Below, in pieces: positions 5,105 to 64,000 of a stretch of 64,000 nucleotides of DNA; position 1 is the stretch's first letter; the number at the start of each line of letters is the position of its first letter. Origin of the DNA: Scenedesmus sp. PABB004. Taxonomy: Eukaryota. Below the pieces are notes generated by a model. The model was not told where the DNA came from. It searched no databases and was given only the letters and a program-made list of their open reading frames with translations. Location: NCBI GenBank assembly GCA_014905635.1, contig JABVCE010000009.1:434001-498000 (forward strand). The letters are read 5' to 3'. The position numbers were made by a program, and so were the translations under genes.

Positions 5105-6195
5105 TCTGCCTGCTGCTGCTGCCGACTGCCCGCGCTCGCGGGCGCGGGCGGGCCTCACGCCATGCCGCTGCCACCCGCGTGCGGGCCGGGATCACGGCGC
5201 CGCGCCAGGCGAGCCAGCAGACGCACAAGCGCAGGCGATGGGGCGGCGGCGGAGCTGCCGCAGCGCTGCTGCGTTCGACTCTTTTCTCGGTCGGCTCGCG
5301 GCGCGGCTGCTCCGCTGCGCGCGTGTGCGGCCGAACGACCGACTGGGGGCACGGCGAGGGCGGCTCCAGCTTCTCCGCTGGTTTAACGCGACGAGCAACG
5401 ACGCTCTGAACTCGACAAACTCGACACCGGCGACGCGCACCACGAGACCGCGCGCGCATGCTTTGCAGCACCAGGACGCCCTCTCAGTGAGGCAGTGAGG
5501 CAGTGAGACAAGCGATCATGAGAACGACACGACGACGACCAGAGCACAAACAGGCGGCACGGCACTGCACCACGACGACCCGACCACCAACGACTCAGCA
5601 CAACGACCACCAGCGGCACGGCACCGCTCCAACCAACAACGCTCGCTCACCACCACGCTCTCGACGACGACGCCAAACACACGCACAAACGGGGGCCGCC
5701 GGAGGGCGCCGCCACGCGGCGCTCGGCAAAACAAGGAGGGCCCCGCCCCGCGGGCGGGGCTGCGGGCAGGACGGTGCCTCCTGCGGCGGGCCTGGCGGCG
5801 GCGCGGGCGCCCGCGGCGGGCGCGCGCGCGGCCAGCCCCGCCTCGGCGCAGCGCGCTGCACTGCTCTAAACAGGAAAGAAAGGAAGGACGCCCACCCATC
5901 ACAGCGGCGCACGCACACGCATGCAGCCCCGGGCTCGGCACACGCGCGCGTTTCTGTTGCTCCAAACACACGAGACCTGGGCAGCCAGTGACAGCAGCGC
6001 CACGCAAACCTGAGACAGACAGAGCTACAAGTGGCCGCGTGTGTGGTACCGTGTACACGGCGGGGGGCGGCCGCGCTGGGGCGGCCGCCTGCGCGCCCCC
6101 AGGGTGAGGTTGAGTCAAGTCCTGCGACGCCGGGGGCCAGGGCGGCCAGCGGCTGGGCCAGCAACCCAGCCAGGCAGAGCTCTGGTGGCTCGCGC

Positions 6196-12067: not shown

Positions 12068-13148
12068 CCGCGGCGCGCCGGTGCGGCGCCGCGAGGGGGG
12101 ACCGCACGTACAGACGTTCTCATGTCGCGGCCGCGCCCGAGAGAGACCCCCCGGGGCGCGCCCGGCCACAGCGGGCCGCGCCGCGGTGGTTGTTGCTGGG
12201 AGAGTGGGCCCGCGCGAGAGGGCAGCACTTGACTGCAGCGGCGGGGGCGCCGCGGCGCTCGCGGTTTTTTCATCCCGCCGCACCGTGGCAGTGGTTTTCG
12301 AATTGTTGGGAGGTACTCGGCTGCAGGCTGGTGTGGCCGCTGCTGTGCGCCGCCGGCCGCCTGCCGCCCCGGGCGGCGGCGGCCGGCGGGCGCGGGCGCG
12401 GCCGAGGGGGCGCACGCCCCCGCCTGCGCCGGCCCCCTTGCGCGGCATGCAGCGCGGCGGCTGGCCGCCTGCGGCGGCGCGAACGATGACGACACACCCG
12501 GCGGCCGCGTTTTCATCGCTGCGGCGCGCGCGGAGCGTGTGTGCTGTATGCGGCTGCGATTTTTCGCTGCAGCTGCGCGGGGGCCTCGCTGCCCCGAGTC
12601 CTGATTTTGCTCTTGGATCCCCCTGTGCCACGCACACACCTAGCTGGATGTTTGCCGTGCGCCCAGCACGCAGCACATAAAAAACAACAAGGCAGCGCGA
12701 GAAAGGACGGGGAGCGTGGCGGCGCGAGGCAGGGCCAGGCCGCAGGCAGGCGTTGTCGACGTAGGTCCGAGTCAAAACCAGCGAGGAGAGGCCGCCCGCG
12801 TGGCACACGCGGCGGGCGGCGACCGCCCACGTCCTGTGGCGGGGGCTGCGCCGGAGGGCGAGGCGGCGCGCAGTTGTTGTTGCCGCCGCGCACGAGGTCA
12901 TAAACGCGAATTCGCCGCGACGCGTCATCGTCCGCGGTTCAGCTCAACCGCATCAGGTCGCCTCGCTCGCGAGGCGCTCCCGGCCGGCCCCCACATCCAC
13001 CGCAGGCGGCCGCCAGCACTCAGGCAGCCGGGCGGCATAGTGACAGCGCGCCGCCGCCGGCGCGCAGCAGCGGCGCGCGCCGCGGTCTGCCCCGCCCAGC
13101 AGCAGCGCTCCCGTCTCACCCCCGCGCCCGTCCCTGCGCCTGCTCGCG

Positions 13149-15531
13149 ATGGTGGCGCTCACCTACTCGCTGCGCGTGGCGCGGCGCGGCCCGGCGGGGC
13201 CGCAGGCGGCCGGCGAGGCGCGCACGTCGCTGCTGGAGCTCTCTGAGCCCGGCGCGACCGTGGAGGACCTCAGGAAGCGCGTGGCCGCGAACCTGGGTGC
13301 GGTGGCGGGGCTGGGGCGCGTGCGCGCTGCCAGCTGCAGGCCGGCGGTGTCCGCACGCCGCCGGCGCAGCGCACAGCAGCAGCGCGGCGCGCCGCCAACT
13401 TGCTCCCCGCTCGCTGGCGCAGGCTTCCCGGCCCTGATTTACGCGGTGGGGCCCAGCCTGGACACGTCTGACCACCTTTCCCTCAACCCGTACGAGCGCG
13501 TGTGCGGCGACAAGTTTTACGTGCTCGACGGCCAGCTGGCGCGCCACCGCGGGCGCGTGCGCAGCATCCACTACGACGGCAGCCTGCGCAAGCTCGCCAC
13601 GTTTGCCGAGGTCACGGCCGCGCCCGTCGCGGTGGAGCTGGAGGCGGTGGAGGTGCCCGCGGCGGCCACGGGCGCGCCGTTTGAGGTGCACGCCAAGACG
13701 CTGATCGGCAAAGTCATCCCGCTGAGCGTCAGCGCCGACACGACGGTGCTGCAGGTCCAGCAGATGATCCAGCAGCGCGAGGGTGCGTGCTCGCTGCGCC
13801 GCGCCGCGCTGTGCTTGCAGGCTGCGGGCGCACACCAAACGGCCGCGCTGCACCGCGCCGCCGCGCCGCACTGACTGGGTAGGGATTCCTGTCGGCCAGT
13901 CGCGCTACATCTTTGCCGGCAAGCAGCTGGCGGACGAGCAGACCCTCGGCGATCTGGGCCTGCGCCCGCCCGCCGTGGCCTCTGCGCACGCAGCGGCGGC
14001 CGCCGGGCTGCCCTGGCTCGCGGCCGCGCGCACCGGGGCGGAGCGCGACGCGCCGCCGCCTGCCTCCGGCGCCGTCCCAGTCATCCACCTGGTGTCGCGC
14101 CTGCGTGGCGGCATGTTCCATGTGACCAGCGGGCGCGCCGACAACCACGTGCCCCTGCCGCTCGCCGAGACCCAGGTCACGGTCGTGCTGCCGAGCGGCG
14201 CCGAGGTCGCGCTGACCGTGCCGCCCGAGATCACCGGCGGCGCGCTGCTCGCGCGCGCGCTCGCGCCGGCGGCGGAGCAGCCGCCCGGCGCGCGCGCCGG
14301 CGACGCCGACACAGCGGCAGCGGGGAGCCCTGGGCAGCAGCAGCAGGACGATCTGGCGCGCCTGCTCGCGCGCGTGCGCGAGCTGCGCATGCGCGCGGGC
14401 GGCGGCTTCAGGGCCTGGGGCAAGCGCGAGTGGGCGGCCGTGCTCGCGGCCGAGGACGCGCTGCGCCTGTGCCCCGAGACGCAGGCCGCGTACGCGGCCG
14501 CTGAGCAGCAGGACAGCGCCACGGACTGGCTGGAGGTGACGGAGGGCCTGCAGCGCCGCGTGCTGGCCGAGGCGGGCGTGGACGGCGGCGCGATGCACGT
14601 CGCGCTCGCGGAGCTCCGCGCCGCGCCGCACCGCCACGCCGCGCTGAAGCCACTGTGCCTCTACCACCGCCACCAGCGCGCGTGGGACGGGCCGCCCGTG
14701 GGCAGCGCGGTGCCGCCCGAGCTGCGGCTCGCGCCGCCGGGCGCGCCGGGCGCGCGCGTGCGCCTGCTGGACGCCTTCACCAGCCCCCGGCACGAGCTGC
14801 TGGTGGTGTTTGCCGGCAGCCACTCCTGACCCCCGTTCCGGGCCATGGTGCAGCCCATGGCCGAGCTGGCGGAGGAGTTTGGCGGGCTCGTGAGCTCGGT
14901 CGTGGTCTACATCGCCGAGGCGCACGCAGGTGTGCGCTGCGCGCGCTGCGCGCCGCCGCGCCGCGCCGCCGCGCTCGACTCGGCCTCGCCCGCGCCCCCG
15001 CCCCACGCGCGTGCGTCGCCCGCCGCAGAGGACGAGTGGCCCATCAAGAGCAGCCGCTTCAACGGCGGCCGCGGCCCCGTGTGCATCCCGCAGCACGCGA
15101 CGACCGCGGCGCGCTGCGTGGCCGCCGCGGCGTTTGCGGCAGCGTTTGGGCTCCGCCTGCCGCTGCTGGTCGACCCCGTGCCGGGGGAGGAGCGCGGCGA
15201 CGGCAGCGACCCCGGCGCCTGGCTCGCCGCGCCCGCGCCCGCGCCCGCGCCGGCCCAGCCACCCGCCGCCGCCGGCGCCGCAGCGCCGGCGGGCGGCGCG
15301 CCGCGCAGCTGCCTCGGCGGCGCGTGCGCGGCGCCGCCGGGCGCGCGGCGCGGCTACGTGGGCCTCGGCCGCAGCGGCCCCTTCGACGCGGCGCTCGCGC
15401 CGTGGCCGCTGCGCTTCTACGTGCTCGACCGCCGCGGCGTGCTGCGCTTCAGGGCCGACCCACGCGACTGCGCGTACGACATCCTCGAGCTGCGCGCGTT
15501 CCTGCAGGGCGCGGCGGCGCGGCCCGCGTAG
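13149..15531 (+). CDS. Ubiquitin-like domain / iodothyronine deiodinase-like selenoprotein fusion (Sec at TGA 14827-14829)
   Basis: Exons 13149-13296, 13423-13782, 13883-14929, 15029-15531 (all GT-AG). Ubl part: FEVHAKTLIGKVIPLSVSADTTVLQVQQMIQQRE|GIPVGQSRYIFAGKQLADEQTL...IHLVSRLRGG. Deiodinase part: LLVVFAGSHS-U-PPFRAM..VVYIAEAHA|EDEWP..QHATTAARCVAA..LLVDPV..APWPLRFYVL. SECIS in the 3' UTR. Confidence 0.88.
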
Positions 15532-15590
15532 CCGCGCGCGCGCGCGCGCGGGAGCGGGGGCGGCGCGCCAGCGCGGCGGCGGCGGCGGCG

Positions 15591-15674
15591 GCGGCGGGCT
15601 GCCATGACGGCGGGGCCCCCACCCCGGGCGCGCGCGCCCGGGCGGGCCCCGCCCGACCCCCGCCTGCCCGCCGC
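15591..15674 (+). promoter_or_regulatory. SECIS element (form 2, C-rich apical motif)
   Basis: Helix I GCGGCGGGC 15591-15599 / GCCCGCCGC 15666-15674. Core ATGAC 15604-15608 / CGAC 15654-15657. Perfect 10-bp helix II 15609-15618 / 15644-15653. Apical mini-stem 15623-15630 / 15635-15642. Lies 60 nt after the stop of a gene with an in-frame TGA. Confidence 0.82.
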
Positions 15675-15818
15675 ACGCCGCACGCCGCCCGCGCTGGCGT
15701 GCTTGGCTCCCCCTGCGTGCTGCTGTGTGCTCGACCCAGTTGAACGCGCGAGTTGACCCCACACGCGCCGCCCGCGGCCCTCGCGCGACGGCACGCCACT
15801 CGGCAGCGGCGCTGCGCA

Positions 15819-16066
15819 GCTGATGGTCGCCGCCCATGGCGCTGCGCTGCGCCCGGGCCAGGGGCGCTCGTCGCGCTCGTCGCGTCGACAACCACGTGCC
15901 CCTGCCGCGGCGCGCTGCCCACTCGATCGCGCACGGCCAGGGCGGTGCTGCCCCCCGCGTGCCGGGCGGCGGCGCCGCTGCCGGCGCGGCGGAGCTGGGG
16001 CGGGCGCCTGGCGCGCCCTGGCCCGGGTCCTGCCTGCAGTGCGTGGTGGTGGCGCCCGGTCTGCAG
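15819..16066. repeat. Diverged inverted copy (about 250 bp) of 24396-24657
   Basis: Colinear reverse-complement similarity, including a 38-nt exact match (16029-16066 vs 24396-24433) and a 22-nt exact match around the ARID gene ATG (15819-15840 vs 24636-24657). Confidence 0.9.
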
Positions 16067-16335
16067 GCGCGCCATCGGGGGGAGGGGGGGCGCAGCGTTC
16101 GAGCGGCGCTCGAACTCGCAACGGTCACCGGCGGCCCGAGCCCTGCCCCGCGCCCCAGCGGCTCAGCGCGCCGCGCCGTCCGGTGCGCGCCGCTGTTTCC
16201 GCCCGCATCGGCGTCCTCGCCGAGCCCCTCCGCCCGCATCGGCGCTGGTCAACTCAGCCCTCCGTCGCCCGCCCCCCACGCGCCGCAGCCGGGCCGCTTC
16301 GCCCCCGCGCGTGCGCCGCCGTGAAGCGCGACAGC

Positions 16336-19300
16336 ATGACGCGCCTCCTCCTGGATCGCGCCGTCCCGCGCCTGTTTGCCAAGCGCGCCTCGAAGGCCGC
16401 GTACTCGAAGGCCGAATTTCTCGAGGACGCCGCGCCGCCTCGCGACTCGGAGCCCCAGATCCTGGACGGGGAGCTGGCGGAGGCTGATCAGGGGGAGCAG
16501 ATCACGGCGGCCGAGCCCCCGGCGGCGGCCGAGCCGGCCGCGGCGGCCGAGCCCATGGATTCGCTGCTGCCCTGCGGGGAGCCCGCCAGCGACGCGCCGG
16601 CGGCGGCTGCCAGCGAGGCTCCCAAGAAGCGCAAGGGCCTGCTCGAGCTGTTCCACCTCACCAGGGCCCGGGACAAGCAGGCGGCGGAGCAGGGCGCGCC
16701 GGCGCCGGCGCGCTACAAGGCGATCCTGCGCCGCCTCGCGCGCAAGGCCAGGGCGCCCGCGCCCGCGCCCGCGCCCGCGGCGCCCAGGCCGGCCAAGGCC
16801 GCCAAGGTGCGGCGGCGAGCGCGGCGGCGGTGCGCGCACGCGCGCGCGCATCGGCTCGGTGCGGGCTCAGGCCGCCGCGCGCGCCCCGCCCCCGCCGCCC
16901 ACGCTGCGCGCAGAAGAACCCGCACGCCCTGCACGCCGCGGCGTGGCGCACCGACGTCGCCGAGCTGGGCGCGCTGCTCGATGCCGGCGGCGACACGTCG
17001 AAGCGCGACCGCGCCGGCCTGACCGCGCTGCACTACGCCGCGTGGCAGGGGAGCGTCGAGGGCGTCGAGCTGCTGCTCGGCGCCGGCGCCAAGGCCGACG
17101 CGGCCGACCCGGAGGGCATGCTGCCGCTCCACTTTGCGGCGTGGTTCAACCGCCTCGACGTCGCGGCGCTGCTGCTCGACCGCGGCAGCGCGCTCAACCC
17201 GCCCGCGCGCGGCGGGCAGTGGCCGACGACGCCGCTCATCTACGCGGCCAAGATGGGGCACGCCGACATGGCCGCGCTGCTCATGGAGCGCGGCGCCGAC
17301 GTCGCGGCGACGTACAAGGCCGCGAGCAGCGCGCTGCACGAGGCCGCGTGGGCGGGGCACGCGGCGGTGGTCGCCGAGATGCTGCGCCGCGGCGTGAGCC
17401 ACGACCTCGCGACCTCGGTGCGGCCGCGCGCCGCCGCCGCCGCCTCCGCCGCGCGCCGCCGCCGCGGCCAGCCGCGCGCCGGGGCTTGCTTGCACGCGCG
17501 GCCCACCCCGCGGCCCACCCCGCCCCGCCCCTCCCCGCCGCCGCCGCCCGACCCGCCGCGCAGAAGAGCAAGTACCGCCCGCTGCACCTGGCGGCGATGA
17601 GCGGCAGCACCGCGGTCGTGGCCGAGCTGCTCGCCCAGGGCGCCTGGGTCGACGCGCGCTCCCAGGCGCGCCCGGACGCGCGCGCGCCCGATCACGGCGG
17701 CGCGGCGCGGCACACGGCGTGGCCGCACCGCCCTCCCTCACACGCGCCCGCCGCCCGCCGCCGCCGCGCGCGCAGATGGGGCGCACGCCCCTTCACCTTT
17801 CTTGCGAGAAAGGCCACGTCGGTGCCGCGGCCGCGCTGGTCGCGGGCGGGGCCGACCTGCTCGCCAAAGACAGGGTGAGGAGCAGCGCACGCGCGCGGCA
17901 CGCGCCGCGCTGCACCCAGACCGCGCGCGCCGCGCGCCGGCTCGCGCCGCGCGCCAAGCTGACGCCGCGCGCCTCCGCGCGCGCGCGCGCGCGGCGGCCG
18001 GCCGGCGCAACCCCCCCCCCCCCCGCCCCCCAGCACGGCTTCACGCCGCTGCACCTCGCGGTCGACAACAACCACACCGCCCTGGCCAAGCTGCTCCTGG
18101 ACAAGGGCGCCACGCCCGACGCGCCCGACGCGGTGCGCCGCCGCCCGCGCCGCCGGCCGCGCCGCGCGCGCGCCGTCGCCGGCCCACCGCCGCGCGCCGA
18201 CGCTCACCCGCTCTCCCCGCCCGCCCCCGCGCCCCCAACCTCCCAGCACGGCGCGCTGCCGCTCAACTTTGCTCACGACCCCGACTTCTTCAAGCTCCTC
18301 CGCGCCGTGCGCTGGTACGGCGCCGCGAGCGTGCCGAGCGGCAACAACGCGCGCAGCCGGCGCTACGTGAGCGCGTTCGAGGCGGCGGCCCCCGTGGGCA
18401 CGGCGGCGGCGGGCGCGGGCGCGGGCGACGCGCTGCGCGCGTCGACATCGAGCGAGGCGGCGGGCGCGGCCATCGCGGCCGCGGCGCAGGCCGCGCAGGC
18501 GCGCGCGGGCGGCGGCGGCTGGCTTAAGGCGCTGCGCTCGCGCCCCGCCGCCGTGGCGGCGGCCGCCGCGGCGCCGGGCAGCAGCGCGCTGACGGCGCCC
18601 GAGGACCGCGCGGCGCCCGCCGCCGACGGGCCGGCGGCGGCCGAGCCGCCGGCCGCCAGCCCCGCCGGCAGCGCGCGCAGCGGCGAGAGCGCCGCCGCGC
18701 ACGCGGCGGCGGTGAGCATGGCGCACCAGGCCGTCCAGGCGGTCGTAGAGCGCGCCGCGGTGGAAGCGGCGCTGGAGCAGCTCAAGGCCAGCCAGGGCGG
18801 CGCGCAGGGCGAGACCGCGGCGATCGGCGGGCCGCCACCCGCCGGCGCGCCCGCCGCGGCGCCTGGCGCGGCGCGGCTGAGCGCCGACGACGCGGCGCTG
18901 CTGCAGCAGATCCGCACCGCGCTCAGCGCCGGCGGCGACGACGTGGCCGCGTCGCGCCGCGGCAGCTCCGCCGCCTCGCCGCTGCCGGCCACGGCCGCCG
19001 AGGTCGACGAGGAGGAGGTGCGCGGCGCGGCGCGGCACGGCGGGGGGGGGGGGGGGAGCAGGAAGGGAGGGGCGGCGGGCGCGGCCGCAGCCCGGCTCCA
19101 GTCCAGTCGCTGGCCTGCGTGTGCGCGCGCCGGGCCGAGCTTAGCGCCGTGCTGCGCCGCGCCGCCGGGCACGCGCGCGCAGGTCCGGCTCGAGCAGTTC
19201 CTGCGCCAGCCGGCGAGCATCAGCTGCGACGCGCCCGCGCCCGCGCCCGCGCCCGCAACCTCGGACGCGGACGAGGGCGCGGGCGACGTCCAGGGCAGCT

Positions 19301-19572: not shown

Positions 19573-20089
19573 CCAGCGAGCGCGGCGGCACGGCACGCGC
19601 GCGGGTGACAGACTCAGTCCGGGGGAGGTGTGGAGCTGGTCCGCAGTTGAGGGGGCGGCTGCACGTGTGTCGAGATCAGCCGTCGCGCCGCGTGCTGGGT
19701 CGAGACTCAGGCGCGCGTGTCAGAGAGGTGCGGCAGGTAGCGTTAGGAGCGTGGGTTCGATCCGGCTGGGTAGTTAAAGGCTGCGGGGGCCGTCGTAGGG
19801 CGGCGGTCAGATGTGTGGCGGCGGCGGCACCACGGAAGCAGCGCGCGCGCGCACGCGCACAAGAGTGAGCGCTTCCTGGTGCCGCGCGAGGTGCCCCGAT
19901 CGGCGTTCTACGACGCCGCCGACACCTCCCATCACACAAATCAGCGCGGCTGCTCACCGCGCCACAAAGCACTTCGCGAGGCTGGCCGCCCCGTCAACAG
20001 CTTCGCCCGCCGCCCCAACCTTCTCCGCTGCAGAGCAGGCCAGCGAATACACGAGAAAATCAGCCGTGCGATCGTCTAACCGCGCGAGC

Positions 20090-22879
20090 ATGGCCGCAGG
20101 CCGACCGCGCGCGCCGCGCCGGGCGAGTCACGACGCGATCCTCTCCGCCGCGCTCTTTCTGCTGCTCGTGACGGCGAGTGCGGCAGCCGGACGCGGTCCT
20201 CTGACGAGGCGTGAGTCTTTTTCGGGTGCGGCAGCAGGATCACTCCTGCGCGCCGCCCGGCGGCACCCGTCGCGCGCGCGCAGCTGCTCGCCGCCTGCTG
20301 TGTCGTCGCCGCCGCTCGACGCTGCCCGCGCACCTCAACACACCGCACCCGGCTCCCCCGCAGGCGCCCGGCGACTGCAGCAGGTGCCGGCAAGCCCCGC
20401 GCCGAGCGTGCAGCCGGTCGGCGCGGCACTTCTGGAAGTGCGGCCCGCCGGCCCACTGGCCGCGGCCGCCATCGCGCCGGCGGGAGCCGCCGACGGCGCC
20501 GGCAACGCCACGGCTGCGTCTCCCACCCCACTGGCCGCGGCCGCCGTCGCGCCGGCGGGGGCCGCCGACGGCGCCAGCAACGCCACGGCTGTGTCGGCCG
20601 CCCCACTGGCTGCGGCCGTCGTCGCGCCGGCGGGGGCCGCCGACGGCGCCGGCAACGCCACGGCGGTGTCGCCCGCCCCACTGGCCGCGGCCGTCGTCGC
20701 GCCGGCGGGGGCCGCCGACGGCGCCGGCAACGCCACGGCGGTGTCGCCCGCCCCACTGGCCGCGGCCGCCGTCGCGCCGGCGGGGGCCGCCGACGGCGCC
20801 GGCAACGCCACGGCCGTGTCGCCCGCCCCGGGCGAGCCCGACGAGCCCGACCCGCCGGCGGGGCCATATGACGTCGTGCCCGACCCGCCCGATAGCAGCG
20901 CCGCCACCCCCGGCACCCCCGGCAGTGTCACTGCCGCCGGCGCGGTTGCTCACGCCAATGCCACCAACGCTACGAGTGCACCTGCTGGCGTCGCGGCTGT
21001 CACCGCCACGACCACCGGCGCGGGCGCCAACGCCACGAGCACCCCCGCCACCACAGCGGCGGGCGGCACCGGAGCGCTCGGCGATGGACGCCGCGCAGAC
21101 AACGCAAGTGCTGCCGGCGCAGCGCCTGCAGCGCCGAGCGCCCCTGGTGGGCCTGCGCCTGCCGCCGACGCGGGCGCCGGCGCGGCAGCGCCCGTTCAGG
21201 AGCCCGCCGGCGACGCCACTGCCAGCAGCCGCCCCACCGCGGGCGCGCCCGCTGCGCCGCCGTCAGCCACCGCCGAGCTGCAGAAGCAGCGTGAGTGCGC
21301 GCGGGGGCGGGGCCCCGCTGCCGGGCCCCTCGCATGCCTGCGCGCTGCCTCGCTGGCGCCGCGCACGTGCCCATGCGCCCCTGCCGCCGCCGCCGTCGCC
21401 GCCGCCGCCGCCCGCGGGCAGTGCTGCTCGCGACCGCGGGCGCGCTCGCTGGCACCAACCCCCTCGCGCTCGCGGCGTGGCGCGAGGACGCGCCGATGTG
21501 CAGCTGGCCGGGGATCAAGTGCGACCCCGCGGAAGGCCTCGTGCGAGTGATCAGCATGCCGGGCGCGGGGCTCGCGGGCACGCTGCCGGTGGCCTGGAGC
21601 GCGCTGACCACGCTGCGCGTCATCAGCCTCGGCAACAACGCCCTGCTCGGCACGCTGCCGGCGAGCTGGGGCGCGCTGACCGGCCTGCGCGTGCTGGGGC
21701 TGCGGAACAACGGGCTCATCGGCTCCCTGCCGGCCACCTGGGGCCAGCTCGGGGGCTTGACGAGCCTCTACCTCTCCGGCAATAGGCTGTCGGGGCTCTT
21801 GCCTGATGAGTGGGGCGGCATGAAGTCCCTGGCGCTGGCGTACCTCGGCAACAACGGCCTCTTTGGCGCCGTGCCCTCGGCCTGGGCGGCGCTGCCGAGG
21901 CTCGTCGGCATGTGAGCCGCGGCGCGCGCGCGGCGCGCGCCGGGTGCCGCGGCGCTGGGCGCCGCGCCGCGCTGGGCGCCGCCGTGACCGCCGCCGCGCG
22001 CGCGCCGCAGCGATCTGTCGTCCAACAGCCTGTCCAGCACGTTCCCCGCGTCCAGCTGGTCGAACCTCCCCGCGCTGAGCTGGGTGGGGCTGCACGACAA
22101 CCCGGGGCTGCGCGGCTGCCTGCCGGCGGCGTGGCGCGACCGCACCTTCAGCATGCTCACCGCGGACACGGGCAGCGAGGCCGGCGTGGCGGGCGCGGGC
22201 AGCGAGGACGGCACGGGCCCTGCCGAGCCGGAGCCCAGCGTGCGCGTGCCGGTGGGCGTGCGCGCCGGCGGCGACGCGGGCGCGCAGCTCGTGCCGGGCG
22301 CGGGGCCGCTCGCCGGGACGGCGATGACCGGCTGGTGCGCTGGCAGCGCTGCGCCCCTGCCGGGGGCCGGGGCAGGTGCGGCTCCCGTGGTGCCGGGCCC
22401 GCTGGCCGGCGCGGCGGGCCCCGCCGTGCTGCTGTCGCCGGCGGCTGCACCCGGCTCAGCTGAGCCTGCGGCGGTGGAGCCTGCGGCGGCTGTGCCAGCG
22501 AAGAGTCCGTTGCCGCCGGCTCCGGTGCCCCCGGCTCCGGTGCCGCCGGCTCCGCAGCCGGGCGCGACTGAGCCGGTGGCGGCTGTGCCGGCCGAGGCAG
22601 AGCCGGCCGTCGCTGAGCCGGCGGCTGCTGAGCCTGTGGCAGCTGTGCCTGCGGCGGTTGTGCCAGCGGCGGCTGAGCCGGCGGCCGCTGTGGAGCCGGT
22701 GGCGGCGGGGCGTTGGGTCCGGCGCCAGGGTCGCCGCTGCCCGTGAGCCTGGCGCCAGGGTCGCCGCTGCCCGTGAGCCTGGCGCCAGGGTCGCCGCTGC
22801 CGTGAGCCCAGCCGACGTGCCAGTGGGAACGGCTGACGCCGCCGCCAGCGGCGAGAACGCGGAGAGGTCGCTGGTGTGA
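20090..22879 (+). CDS. Secreted plant-type leucine-rich repeat protein flanked by Ala/Pro-rich repeat regions; 3' end uncertain (22746 as read, 22879 if a 1-nt indel is corrected)
   Basis: Signal-like ILSAALFLLLVTASAAAG; LRRNT cap CSWPGIKC; about 6 LRRs of type LxxLxLxxNxLxGxLPxxW at about 21500-22130; C-cap GLRGCLP. Confidence 0.85.
20453..20829 (+). repeat. Coding tandem repeat, 5 x 75 nt (PLAAAxVAPAGAADGAGNATAVSPA)
   Basis: Units start at 20453, 20528, 20603, 20678 and 20753; near identical, no spacers. Confidence 0.95.
22721..22809 (+). repeat. Tandem repeat, about 3 x 30 nt (ggcgccagggtcgccgctgcccgtgagcct)
   Basis: Directly visible; the third copy differs by a 1-nt deletion. Confidence 0.9.
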
Positions 22880-23148
22880 GGGGAAGTGCGGCGGTTTGAG
22901 GAAAGCAGAGGGGGGTCCGAGGGAGCAACGCGGCGCCGCGGACGCAGCTCAGGGGAGGTTAACCGGCCGGAGCCCCTCGCCGCGCCAGCCCTTGCGCAAG
23001 GGCTGGCGTATGCGCTGCCCGCCGCTCGCTGCCTGGGGCTCACGAGTCTAGCGGCGGCGCCCCTCGCCGCCGCGCGCCGCGGCTGCAGCTGCAGCCGCGG
23101 CCCTCGCGCTCGTGCCTCCGAGCCGCCTCGTCGCCGCCGCCGCTACCG

Positions 23149-50172: not shown

Positions 50173-51725
50173 ATGCGCTCCTTCGCGCTCTCCTCCACGC
50201 CGCGTGCGCCGGCCGCCGGCGCGCGCTGTCGCGCTGCCCTCGCGCCTGCGCGTTTGTCGCGGCGGCTGGCGGCGATCACGCGCGCCGCGCTGGTGGTGCG
50301 TGGCCGCGGCGCTGCCGCCGCGCTGCTGCCGCGGCGCCGCCGCCGCCCACAGCCGCGCGCGTGCTGCCGCCCTCAGGAGCCCGGCGACAAGGTGCTGGTG
50401 GTGGGAGCCACCGGGGGCGTGGGGCAGCTGGCCACCGCAAAGCTGCTGGAGGTGCGGCGACGGGGCCCGTGCCTGGGGGCCGCTCGCTGCCGGCGCCGCC
50501 GCTCGCTGTGGGCGCGGCGCCGACCGCGCGCGACCCTGCGCCGCAGCGCGGCTACAAGGTGCGCGCGCTCACGCGCAAGCCGGACGCCGCCAAGCAGCTG
50601 TTCAGCAACCACCCCAGCCTCGAGGTGACCGCGCGGCGGCGGAGCCACGCTGCCGCGGCGCAGGCCGCCAGGCCTCTGCGGGCGCGGCAGCACGGGCAGC
50701 GCGCGCGTGAAGGGGGCGAGGGCGCTGCCGCCCCACGCGCTGCCGCCGCCTGCCACGCTGCCGCCGCCGTGTCGCGCCGCGCTGCACAGGTGGTGAGCGC
50801 CGACCTGCGGGACGCGAGCACGCTGCCGCCGGTCGTGGCGGGCGTGGACGCGGTGTGCTGCTGCACCGGCACGACGGCGTTCCCCTCGGACCGGTGCGCT
50901 GGCGCGGCGTTCCCCTGACCCCCCGCCGCGCCGGGCCCCGCTCACGCCCGCGGCTCGCGCGCGCCGCCGGCCCGCACGCAGCTGGAAGGGCGACAACGGG
51001 CCGCGCCCGACCGACTACGACGGCCCGCGCAACCTCATCGCCGCGTGCCCCAAGACCCTCAAGCGCTTCGTCTTTGTCACCTCGGCCGGCGTGGAGCGGC
51101 GCACGCAGATGCCGTGGGCGATCCTCAACACCTTTGGTGCGCCGCGGCGGCGCGCCGCCCACGCGCACGCGCCGCGCTGCTGCGCTGCTGCCCTCTCTCT
51201 GCCTACGCCCCGCCCGCCCACGCGCCCGCCCACCACGCCCCCCGCCTGCTCGGCCAGGCGTGCTGAAGTTCAAGCGCGAGAGCGAGCAGCTGCTCGAGGC
51301 GTCGGGGCTGCCCTACACAATCCTGCGCCCCAGCCGGCTCACCGACGGGCCCTACACGAGCTACGACCTCAACACGCTGCTGCAGGCCACGAGCGGCAGC
51401 CGGCGCGAGGTCGTGCTCGCGCCGGACGACAGCCTGCTGGGCGAGGCGTCGCGCATCGCGGTCGCGGGTGCGCGCGCGGCGGCGCCGGCGCCGGCGGCGC
51501 CTGGCCGCGGCGCGCGCGTCGCACCCGCTCACGCCGCCGCCGCGCCCGCGCCGGCCGCCGCGCGCAGAGGCCGCGGTGCAGGCGCTGCAGGCTGCCGCGA
51601 CCGAGAACCGGGCGTTTGCGCTGGAGAGCGTGGAGGGCGAGGGCCCGGGCCAGGACGCGGCCAAGTGGGCGGCGCTGTTTGCGGGCTGCTACGGCGAGCC
51701 GGCGCGCAGCAAGGTGCCGGCGTGA
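50173..51725 (+). CDS. ROQH1: Atypical NAD(P)-binding SDR, plastid; ROQH1 (At4g31530)-like
   Basis: VLVVGATGGVGQL, CCTGTTAFPS, PWAILNTF|GVLKFK, ILRPSRLTDGPYTSYDLNTLLQAT, GEASRIAVA|EA, closely matching my recollection of the ROQH1 sequence. Confidence 0.82.
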
Positions 51726-62600: not shown

Positions 62601-64000
62601 AGGCCGGCAGGCAGGCAGGCGGGCCGCGGCTCCTGCGGTGTGTGCGTGCCGCGCTGGCGCCGGGCGACACGCGTGCCCGCGCCGCCCGCCTGCGCGCGCG
62701 CGCGCGCGCGCGCGCGCTGCCAGGCTCAGCGCCAGGACGCGGAGGTGCAGCGCCTGACCGCCGCGCTCGCGGCGGCGCCGCGTGAGGACCCCAACGCGCC
62801 CAGCGCGCGCCAGGCGCTGCACAAGCTCGCTGCCGAGGTGCGGGCGGTCCCTCCCGCGCGCGTCGTGGGCACGGGCCGGGGCTGCGCCGCCGCCGCCGGC
62901 TCAGCTGCGCGTGCGCGCGCTTCGCAGGCGCGCCTCAAGGACGAGCGCCTGCGCCAGCTTCGCGCCGCGATCAAGGCCCTGGAGGGCAAGCTCTCCCAGC
63001 TGCTGAAGGACAAGACAGACCTGTGAGGCGCCCCGGCGCGGCGCGGCAGGGGCGCACCGGCTGCGCTGCGGCAGCTTGGCCACAACCCCCGTGCGCTTGC
63101 TCACCCTCGCAGCGTGATGCAGGCGAGCAGCTGGGTGGAGCAGGAGCACCTGGACGAGCGGCTCGCCGAGCTGGAGGCGCAAAAGGCGGAGCTCGCCGCG
63201 CAGCTCGCGGAGGCGCAGGCCGAGCTCGCGGCGGCGCGCGCCGCGGCGGCCGCACAGGACGCGGCACTGCGCAAGCAGCGCGAGCAGCTGCTGCACGAGC
63301 GCGAGGCCGCGGCGCGGCTGCGCGCGGCGCTGGCCAAGGAGCAGGGCCTGGTGTCCGCGCTGCGCGCCAAGGCGGCCAAGGTGCGGCGCCGGCAGGCTTT
63401 GGGGGGCGGGGGGCGGGGCGGGGCGGCCACCTGAGGCCGCCGAGCCGGCATCAACGCCGCGCGCGCGCTGCGCCGCGCGCAGGCCGCCGCCGACGCGCCG
63501 GCGGGCAGCCAGGAGGCGCTGGCGCTGCAGGTCGCGGCACTGCAGGGCCGCGTGGCCGAGCTGGAACTGGAGGTCCAGCGCCTGACCGCGCAGCTGCGCC
63601 GCCAGGCCGCGCTTGCAGAGCCCAGCGGCAAGGCGCCGCGCGGCGGCGAGGGCCTGCCGGCGGTGCGCATCGGCAAGGCCAGGCCCAGCCTGGGTGAGGG
63701 CGTGTCGTCGCCGGGCACGCCTGACATGGGCCCGCCCGCACCCGGCGGCGCCGCGCGGGGGCTGCCCAGCAGCGATGGCGGCGGCGGCAAGCCCAGCCGC
63801 CTGTCGAGCGCCACCGGCGCGGCGGGCAAGGCGGGGCCGGCGCCAGATGCCAGCCGGCCCGGCAGCCCAGGCGGGAGCGCCGCGGGCGCGCAGCCGAGCG
63901 CGGACGGCGGCGCGAGCGCCTCTGCCCCGGGCGGCGTGAGCTACGCGCCGCAGGCGTGGGAGGAGTCCAAGCAGCAGCAGGCGCGCATCGAGGCGCTCAG
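53693..64000 (+). CDS. CEP290: Centrosomal/transition-zone coiled-coil protein CEP290; more than 30 exons, runs off the window end
   Basis: Long coiled-coil exons with the diagnostic block YESGVYGLPQ|AAQEIRQLK..LLRRKAGL..LRSVNALLERQ|VSDLEEERRKLR..GRAALEMGLSSEQL, and ALGKLHGEL. Confidence 0.88.

Follow-up and report, generated by a model that had tools for sequence, protein, structure and literature searches.

A probable selenoprotein gene joining a ubiquitin-like domain to a deiodinase-family enzyme through an in-frame TGA in Scenedesmus sp. PABB004

The DNA analyzed here, referred to as the window, comprises 64,000 nucleotides of Scenedesmus sp. PABB004 (GenBank assembly GCA_014905635.1, contig JABVCE010000009.1, positions 434,001 to 498,000 of the forward strand), and all coordinates below are counted from its first nucleotide. 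Between nucleotides 13149 and 15531 the window includes a locus that, on the strength of sequence comparisons and structure models, most likely is one four-exon nuclear gene encoding a 685-residue selenoprotein, in which a ubiquitin-like (Ubl) domain precedes an enzyme of the deiodinase family with selenocysteine (Sec) at residue 485. We give this interpretation a probability of about 0.85. The four exons, 13149-13296, 13423-13782, 13883-14929 and 15029-15531, lie on the forward strand and are separated by three introns, all with GT..AG boundaries. When joined they amount to 2058 nt, that is, 685 codons followed by TAG, and the sole internal stop is the TGA at 14827-14829, which is codon 485. 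A preliminary description of the locus, made from the letters of the sequence, had listed these exons together with several peptide strings, and all of them are present at the positions it assigned. Reading through the TGA gives LLVVFAGSHS-U-PPFRAM, YIAEAHA|EDEWP, QHATTAARCVAA, LLVD and PWPLRFYVL, where U is selenocysteine and the bar marks the third exon junction.

Alignments and modeled folds indicate that the TGA at 14827-14829 almost certainly encodes the active-site selenocysteine. A phmmer search against all Protein Data Bank (PDB) chains returned only mouse Dio2 (9h48, E 2e-6) and Dio3 (4tr3, E 3.5e-3). In these alignments the TGA falls on the residue engineered from Sec to Cys in the crystallized proteins (AGSHS-TGA-PPF in the window, GSATCPPF in 9h48 and GSCTCPPF in 4tr3), and YIAEAHA is aligned on the YIDEAHP and YIEEAHP of Dio2 and Dio3. 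The E, A and H of this EAH motif are invariant or nearly so among 22 family members; the catalytic Glu and His that the preliminary description held to be kept are thus found where the deiodinases have them. With TGA translated as U, the Pfam family T4_deiodinase (PF00837) matched the region around the codon with 28.3-28.8 bits against a cut-off of 27 (E about 1e-6), so that the deiodinase assignment proposed beforehand stands above the Pfam threshold. Since the fold is interrupted by intron 3, the match extends no further than its first part; the same family scores 62-98 bits in the intact relatives P0014, P0119, P0122 and P0132.

The fold points in the same direction. An AlphaFold model of the protein encoded by nucleotides 14113-15528 had a mean predicted local distance difference test score (pLDDT) of 73.9, with the helical and thioredoxin parts mostly above 85 and values below 50 over, among other stretches, a low-complexity loop that close relatives have as well, at varying length. 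Foldseek searches with this model found 9h48 as the best match (E 1.3e-7, template modeling (TM) score 0.78 by target) and then 4tr3 (E 2.4e-7), the next structure appearing at E 4e-4. A model of the relative P0155, with a pLDDT of 88.7, matched the same two structures with E values of 6.8e-13 and 9.5e-12 and TM scores by target of 0.82 and 0.76, respectively. Pfam, the PDB alignment and the fold matches agree in placing the TGA on the catalytic Sec column of the deiodinase family. Near the C-terminus, the Cys of a P-x-D-C-x-Y motif is kept in nine of the 13 aligned members that reach the motif and might, speculatively, be a resolving residue. No N-terminal membrane anchor was apparent in the translation, to which no dedicated membrane-segment tool was applied.

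The behavior of relatives at the TGA column carries much of the argument. A phmmer search of 1.84 billion representative proteins yielded 276 relatives at E <=0.001, 56 of them at <=1e-10, and the closest matches of the window protein were from chlorophycean green algae. The column was counted in 151 relatives, 150 among the matches listed and one more. The sequence ends exactly one residue before the column (...AGSYS-end) in 26 of these 151, and a profile search likewise returned many half-length relatives of about 120 residues. The column is spanned with W in eight, with Cys in three and with Ser in one of the 151, while in nine it is spanned by a gap or by unrelated sequence. The last group includes three annotated green-algal proteins whose models lack the GSxxUPPF stretch, around which the gene finder appears to have spliced. 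Since Trp stands at the position of the catalytic nucleophile in the eight W-containing sequences, it is most simply read as TGA rendered as Trp by the gene caller. The expectation that standard gene models would mishandle this type of locus is therefore borne out by the relatives, in which the models either splice around the TGA or stop there.

The TGA could also be seen in DNA. Two metagenome contigs located with the N-terminal alignment, L001 (59% GC) and L002 (70% GC), carry TGA at the same column, and L001 also holds the remainder of the gene downstream of it; a search for related loci with the C-terminal alignment gave no confirmed locus. In L001 the Rfam model SECIS_1, which describes the selenocysteine insertion sequence (SECIS), matched 137 nt after the TAG with 27.2 bits (below the cut-off of 35, E 0.013), and the matching element has a GUGA core and AAA. 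The alternation of Sec and Cys at this column, which the preliminary description had proposed as a check, was observed, as TGA in L001 and L002 and as Cys in three of the 151 relatives. Taken together, the truncated relatives, the TGA codons of the two contigs and the Cys forms point to a selenoprotein family with Cys variants, of which the window gene would be a Sec-containing member.

The organization of the locus is given below; all features are on the forward strand, and triplets of values are G+C fractions at codon positions 1, 2 and 3.

13149..13296, exon 1, with ATG at 13149 and GT donor at 13297; first part of a beta-grasp-like N-terminal region; 0.78/0.57/0.98.
13297..13422, intron 1, 126 nt, GT..AG, in frame and open; flat, 0.81/0.81/0.81.
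13423..13782, exon 2, rest of the N-terminal region and, from about 13680, the first half of the ubiquitin domain; 0.72/0.43/0.94.
13783..13882, intron 2, 100 nt, GT..AG; 0.79/0.71/0.82.
13883..14929, exon 3, second half of the ubiquitin domain, RLRGG, junction motif, linker, helical domain and early deiodinase fold including the TGA.
14098..14136, RLRGG (14098-14112) followed by MFHVTSGR (14113-14136) in adjacent codons of one exon.
14422..14670, helical domain of about 85 residues; helices at model residues 104-186, pLDDT about 72-92.
14725..15528, deiodinase-type thioredoxin fold according to Pfam PF00837 and Foldseek, broken by intron 3 and by the low-complexity loop at about 15190-15370.
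14827..14829, TGA interpreted as selenocysteine 485 of AGSHS-U-PPF, from the Dio2/Dio3 alignment and the column pattern of the relatives.
14930..15028, intron 3, 99 nt, GT..AG, in frame and open; 0.85/0.88/0.91.
15029..15531, exon 4, ending with TAG at 15529-15531; 0.81/0.68/0.96.
15591..15674, candidate type-2 SECIS, AUGA (15604-15607) opposite GA (15655-15656), 73 nt after the TAG.

The encoded domains therefore follow in the order beta-grasp-like region, Ubl ending in RLRGG, MFHxTSGR, a short beta-hairpin with a low-complexity linker, helical domain and deiodinase fold. The removal of intron 2 is needed to bring the ubiquitin halves into one frame, since the two Pfam half-matches flank it in different frames. 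The reading frame does not force the removal of introns 1 and 3, both of which are in frame and contain no stop; we infer it from homology, from their flat codon-position composition and, for intron 3, from low model confidence over the stretch it would encode, where model residues 281-283, 285-289 and 295-304 have pLDDT <50. The Hariotina relative (P0003) aligns over its residues 15-286 with residues 13-316 of the joined protein and has no insert matching intron 1. Taking out intron 3 gives YIAEAHA-EDEWP as in relatives, one of which (P0022) has an insert at the same place.

The composition of the DNA helps to separate exons from introns. The window as a whole is 79.6% G+C (0.75-0.83 per 2-kb block), with coding-frame GC3 of 0.91-0.98 and introns of about 100-126 nt. 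At this G+C content each of the six frames contains long open stretches, so that an open frame by itself says little; codon-position composition is more discriminating. The exons of the gene have GC2 of 0.42-0.68 and GC3 of 0.94-0.98 overall, and the introns are flat or nearly flat. The reading frame of exon 3 is unbroken from 13768 to the TGA at 14829 and then, past the TGA, from 14830 to 15531. Coding periodicity persists beyond the TGA (0.76/0.42/0.94, then 0.81/0.68/0.96 in exon 4) and is gone after the TAG at 15529 (0.84/0.83/0.83). Exon 4 is 50-66% identical to the C-terminal halves of four relatives (P0004, P0006, P0008 and P0151). The next gene downstream, at 16488-17600 on the forward strand, seems to specify ankyrin repeats, and its position leaves the selenoprotein gene a 3' untranslated region (UTR) of less than about 900 nt. 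A TGTAA polyadenylation signal was not found near the gene, a result that is uninformative.

The Ubl domain of the window protein is divergent. Pfam matched it as two halves split by intron 2, covering positions 4-32 (E 0.028) and 34-61 of the ubiquitin model with 14.6 and 19.1 bits, so that each half, scored alone, falls below the cut-off of 25.4. In addition, residues 134-432 of the joined protein align with part of the Chlamydomonas sp. UWO 241 relative (P0001), and this part includes a ubiquitin domain confirmed by Pfam. Before the last strand of the window's Ubl domain there is an in-frame insert of about 33 residues, with ambiguous codon-position values (0.90/0.79/0.92). An additional intron was considered within it (13960-14076); the sole in-frame GT..AG pair there defines 69 nt and was not compelling, and the insert was kept as coding sequence. 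As had been reported beforehand, the Ubl domain lies upstream of the enzyme in the same frame. RLRGG, which ends the domain, MFHVTSGR and everything up to the TGA also belong to the same exon, so that the fusion does not depend on any splice. The same translated exon 3 stretch is matched by both the ubiquitin and the T4_deiodinase families of Pfam.

The motif at the junction is a recurrent one. Among the 275 family proteins collected, 14 contain the pattern M[FY][HQ]x[ST]xG[RK], with 15 occurrences in all: nine times directly after the GG of a Ubl domain, three times after an N-terminal MG, once at the very N-terminus and twice inside F-box proteins. GG precedes the motif in all nine Ubl-fused instances, and these GG-MF[HQ]x[ST]xGR junctions come from eight proteins other than that of the window. 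The helical domain that follows is conserved in the relatives and is specific to this protist, algal and fungal subfamily. Pfam gave no match for it in the window protein or in the relatives scanned, and no usable match came from the ESM Atlas when it was queried with the P0155 segment comprising the N-terminal motif and this domain.

Fusions of the same kind exist elsewhere. The joined protein is colinear with P0003 (residues 13-569), P0002 (64-683) and P0132 (105-569, in one alignment), and a short contig protein, P0131, aligns to residues 164-484 and ends there. Pfam ubiquitin and T4_deiodinase are both found in P0001, P0002, P0003 and P0132, which are KAG1680116.1 of Chlamydomonas sp. UWO 241, HYH03_007430 of Edaphochlamys debaryana, the EukProt protein P001421 of Hariotina reticulata and CAG8580994.1 of Ambispora gerdemannii, respectively. 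The first three are green-algal; the last belongs, with four Rhizophagus proteins (P0270-P0273), to the Glomeromycota and represents a Cys-form fusion. According to precomputed domain assignments, the Rhizophagus proteins have an added ZZ finger and Cys at the active site. The architecture, which was unfamiliar when the locus was first described, is thus not unique to it, occurring in three green algae and in Glomeromycota; it is true that there the fusion is unnamed or mis-modeled, the database names being "hypothetical protein", "Ubiquitin C" and "Iodothyronine deiodinase". Two F-box proteins of eukaryotes (P0274 and P0275, one with ZZ and other zinc-binding domains) have MFHxxNxR and the helical domain, and both end in ...GSYT, at the Sec column. 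Stand-alone forms of the enzyme (P0155, P0156, P0157 and P0119) start at the MFH motif or two residues earlier. Judging from these sequences, the enzyme module occurs either alone or behind domains of the ubiquitin system. A separate observation concerns P0001, a protein of 943 residues with two tandem copies of the whole unit of Ubl and deiodinase-like enzyme, which suggests either that the gene finder merged a tandem gene duplication or that the double protein is real.

Downstream of the TAG, the stem-loop at 15591-15674 is probably the SECIS element of the gene, although unproven. It can be folded into a 9-bp helix I, an internal loop with CAUGAC opposite CGACCCCC, a 10-bp helix II and an apex formed by an unpaired CCAC, an 8-bp mini-stem and a 4-nt loop, which is the layout of a type-2 SECIS. 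The 86 nt around the AUGA have a minimum free energy of -66.2 kcal/mol with a z score of -3.4, and none of 200 shuffled sequences was as stable. A scan of both strands (128 kb) for the pattern [AG]TGA-N, helix II, N-GA, helix I found, under strict settings, four sites, of which this candidate was the best; under laxer settings it was the only site between 15500 and 17600. Long mini-stems are described by Lobanov et al. (PMC2375036) as typical of Ostreococcus and Chlamydomonas SECIS elements and of the Dictyostelium deiodinase-like gene. Other loose SECIS-shaped sites, used as background, were located at 17661-17695, 17162-17239, 51463-51532 and 5866-5902 on the reverse strand and at 19605-19704, 21912-22012 and 22773-22883 on the forward strand.

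A possible mode of action can be outlined by analogy. UGA-485 would be recoded as Sec by means of the type-2 SECIS-like stem-loop and the usual machinery (tRNA-Sec, eEFSec and SBP2); a tRNA scan of the 64-kb window detected no tRNA gene. The selenolate, placed where helix alpha1 begins in a thioredoxin fold of the peroxiredoxin-like type, would attack an electrophile with the aid of the Glu and His of EAH. By comparison with the deiodinases this electrophile might be the halogen of a halogenated phenolic or aromatic compound, and by comparison with the peroxiredoxins a peroxide or oxidized sulfur; after the attack, thiols would re-reduce the selenium. As for the Ubl domain, the reading we prefer, at a little short of even odds, is that it is a cleavable head, as in ubiquitin-fusion proteins, cut after GG; alternatively it might remain attached as a docking domain. 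The joining of the module to Ubl in green algae, to ubiquitin repeats and ZZ in Glomeromycota, and to F-box in two eukaryotic proteins suggests a link with the ubiquitin system. That the enzyme is made as a Ubl fusion precursor and acts within that system, which would be a conserved and undescribed connection between a redox or dehalogenating Sec/Cys enzyme and ubiquitin-dependent regulation, is an idea that we consider doubtful. If it were correct, the enzyme might serve as a substrate adaptor that senses redox state, or cleavage of the Ubl domain could set its release or turnover.

Several points weigh against parts of this interpretation. The PF00837 score of the window protein barely exceeds the cut-off. 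At about 80% GC, both open frames and stable hairpins are common, and the Rfam SECIS models, applied to 13000-17500, to 15532-15800 and, with E values up to 10 allowed, to the 96 nt of 15585-15680, gave no match. The candidate lacks the unpaired AAR motif and has CCAC in its place. The strict pattern scan missed the element of L001, which served as control, and the setting that recovered it gives nine sites per 128 kb, a density that would by chance put a site no more than 150 nt from a given stop in about 1% of cases, and no more than 500 nt from it in about 3.5%. The substrate and the chemistry outlined above are drawn from analogy. Finally, the junction motif occurs inside the two F-box proteins without a preceding GG, so an exposed N-terminus would not be required, and this makes cleavage after GG less convincing.

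Some of these points would suit a locus in which the TGA is a true stop, the product then being a protein of about 484 residues with the Ubl and helical domains and the downstream frame a decaying remnant or untranslated. TGA is after all a normal stop codon, Rfam recognized no SECIS and open frames arise easily at 80% GC. We nevertheless regard this as very unlikely, considering that the downstream frame is 50-66% identical to relatives and keeps EAH and WPLRFYV, that coding periodicity runs to the TAG, that this frame is modeled as the second half of the Dio fold, and that two other loci, and by implication the 26 truncated relatives, have TGA at the column. The closest relatives (about 40-67% identity) stopping at the TGA column, the two independent contigs with TGA there and the SECIS-shaped element downstream of the stop speak likewise against the possibility that the Cys codon (TGC or TGT) of a Cys-type enzyme was miscalled in sequencing or assembly, or has recently mutated. 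Cys forms such as P0034, P0132, P0139 and the Rhizophagus proteins do exist, and would be the precedent for that explanation, to which we give an extremely low probability.

The fusion could in turn be an artifact of long open frames, with the Ubl and deiodinase parts expressed from separate mRNAs or genes. The stand-alone enzymes P0155, P0156, P0157 and P0119 and the presence of an ATG exactly at 14113 are compatible with such an arrangement. It is made highly improbable by the adjacency of the RLRGG and MFHVTSGR codons in one exon, which calls for neither a stop nor a splice signal between the two, by the continuity of the coding periodicity over the junction, and by the uninterrupted junction in nine instances from eight green-algal and Glomeromycota proteins and in P0131. 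Least probable of all is that the organism decodes TGA as ordinary Trp or Cys, with no selenocysteine involved. The W found at the column in eight relatives would fit a code in which TGA is Trp, as it would the code used by a gene caller; on the other hand the 685-codon gene has only one TGA, located on the catalytic column, 10 of the 16 coding-like frames in the window are bounded by TGA, and Trp would be unable, from what the chemistry of the family implies, to replace the catalytic nucleophile.

The interpretation of the locus as a Ubl-deiodinase-family selenoprotein gene can be placed next to known systems. With the vertebrate Dio1-3 (PF00837; 4tr3, 9h48) the predicted protein shares the thioredoxin/peroxiredoxin-like fold, the Sec in G-S-x-[ST]-U-P-P-F, the Y-I-x-E-A-H motif, the order of the later motifs and, if the candidate element is functional, UGA recoding through a 3'UTR element. 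It differs from them in having no evident membrane anchor, in the addition of the Ubl domain, MFHxTSGR and the helical domain, and in its long low-complexity loop, and the identity in the structural alignment is 16-17%; thyroid hormones, moreover, are not expected in an alga. Unnamed algal and fungal Ubl-deiodinase proteins have the same Ubl-GG, MF[HQ]x[ST]xGR, helical domain and PF00837 fold as the window protein. Unlike it, the three algal fusion models are devoid of the GSxxUPPF stretch, and the fungal fusions combine Cys at the column with several ubiquitin repeats and the added ZZ zinc finger. A Reticulomyxa "deiodinase" (P0163) and many unnamed metagenome proteins have the helical domain in common with the window protein and belong to the same subfamily.

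Ubiquitin-fusion precursors, such as polyubiquitin, ubiquitin-ribosomal protein fusions and FUBI-eS30, consist of a ubiquitin-type domain ending in GG that is followed by Met and the partner protein. The Ubl domain of the window protein similarly ends in GG directly before the Met of its partner. It differs in that the partner is an enzyme rather than a ribosomal protein, in that the Ubl domain is divergent and includes the insert of about 33 residues, and in that cleavage is only proposed.

Sec-containing PF00837 proteins from non-animal eukaryotes have been described before, namely the DI/DIO selenoproteins of protists and algae (Dictyostelium, PMC2375036; algal "DIO", PMC7539508). In the parts of these papers covered here, the SECIS of the Dictyostelium DI-like gene is of type II with a very long mini-stem, as in the candidate of the window, about 80% of the algal "DIO" family are Sec forms, and the fusions named are SELENOM-pVHL, SELENOM-ShKT and GST-MSRA (the last two statements from PMC7539508). 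The proposal that the locus encodes an algal selenoenzyme therefore holds as far as a deiodinase-family Sec gene is concerned, but such algal and protist selenoproteins were already published. Full-text literature searches and the parts of these two papers covered here gave no Ubl-deiodinase fusion, MFHxTSGR motif or helical domain, although Ubl might be listed for DIO elsewhere in PMC7539508. The enzyme family is thus known, and its Ubl-fused form was not found in print.

If correct, the gene would add a hidden selenoprotein to chlorophycean-type green algae, three annotated green-algal relatives having lost the active-site stretch from their models. A distinct subfamily, marked by an N-terminal motif and a helical domain of its own, would then exist among the non-animal deiodinase-like enzymes, and the fusion of this subfamily to ubiquitin-system domains in more than one lineage could be a lead to the function of deiodinase-like enzymes outside animals. 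The candidate SECIS, which is almost pure G+C and has no AAR, would, if functional, be a test of how far such an element can drift at 80% GC.

Another in-frame TGA is found near the end of the window, at 63432-63434 on the forward strand, where it parts two coding-like frames, 63027-63431 and 63435-63998. A SECIS-like GTGA...GA hairpin at 63694-63723, on the same strand and 260 nt after this TGA, lies inside a coiled-coil-like frame and was rejected as probably due to chance. The TGA at 63432-63434 itself probably lies in an intron.

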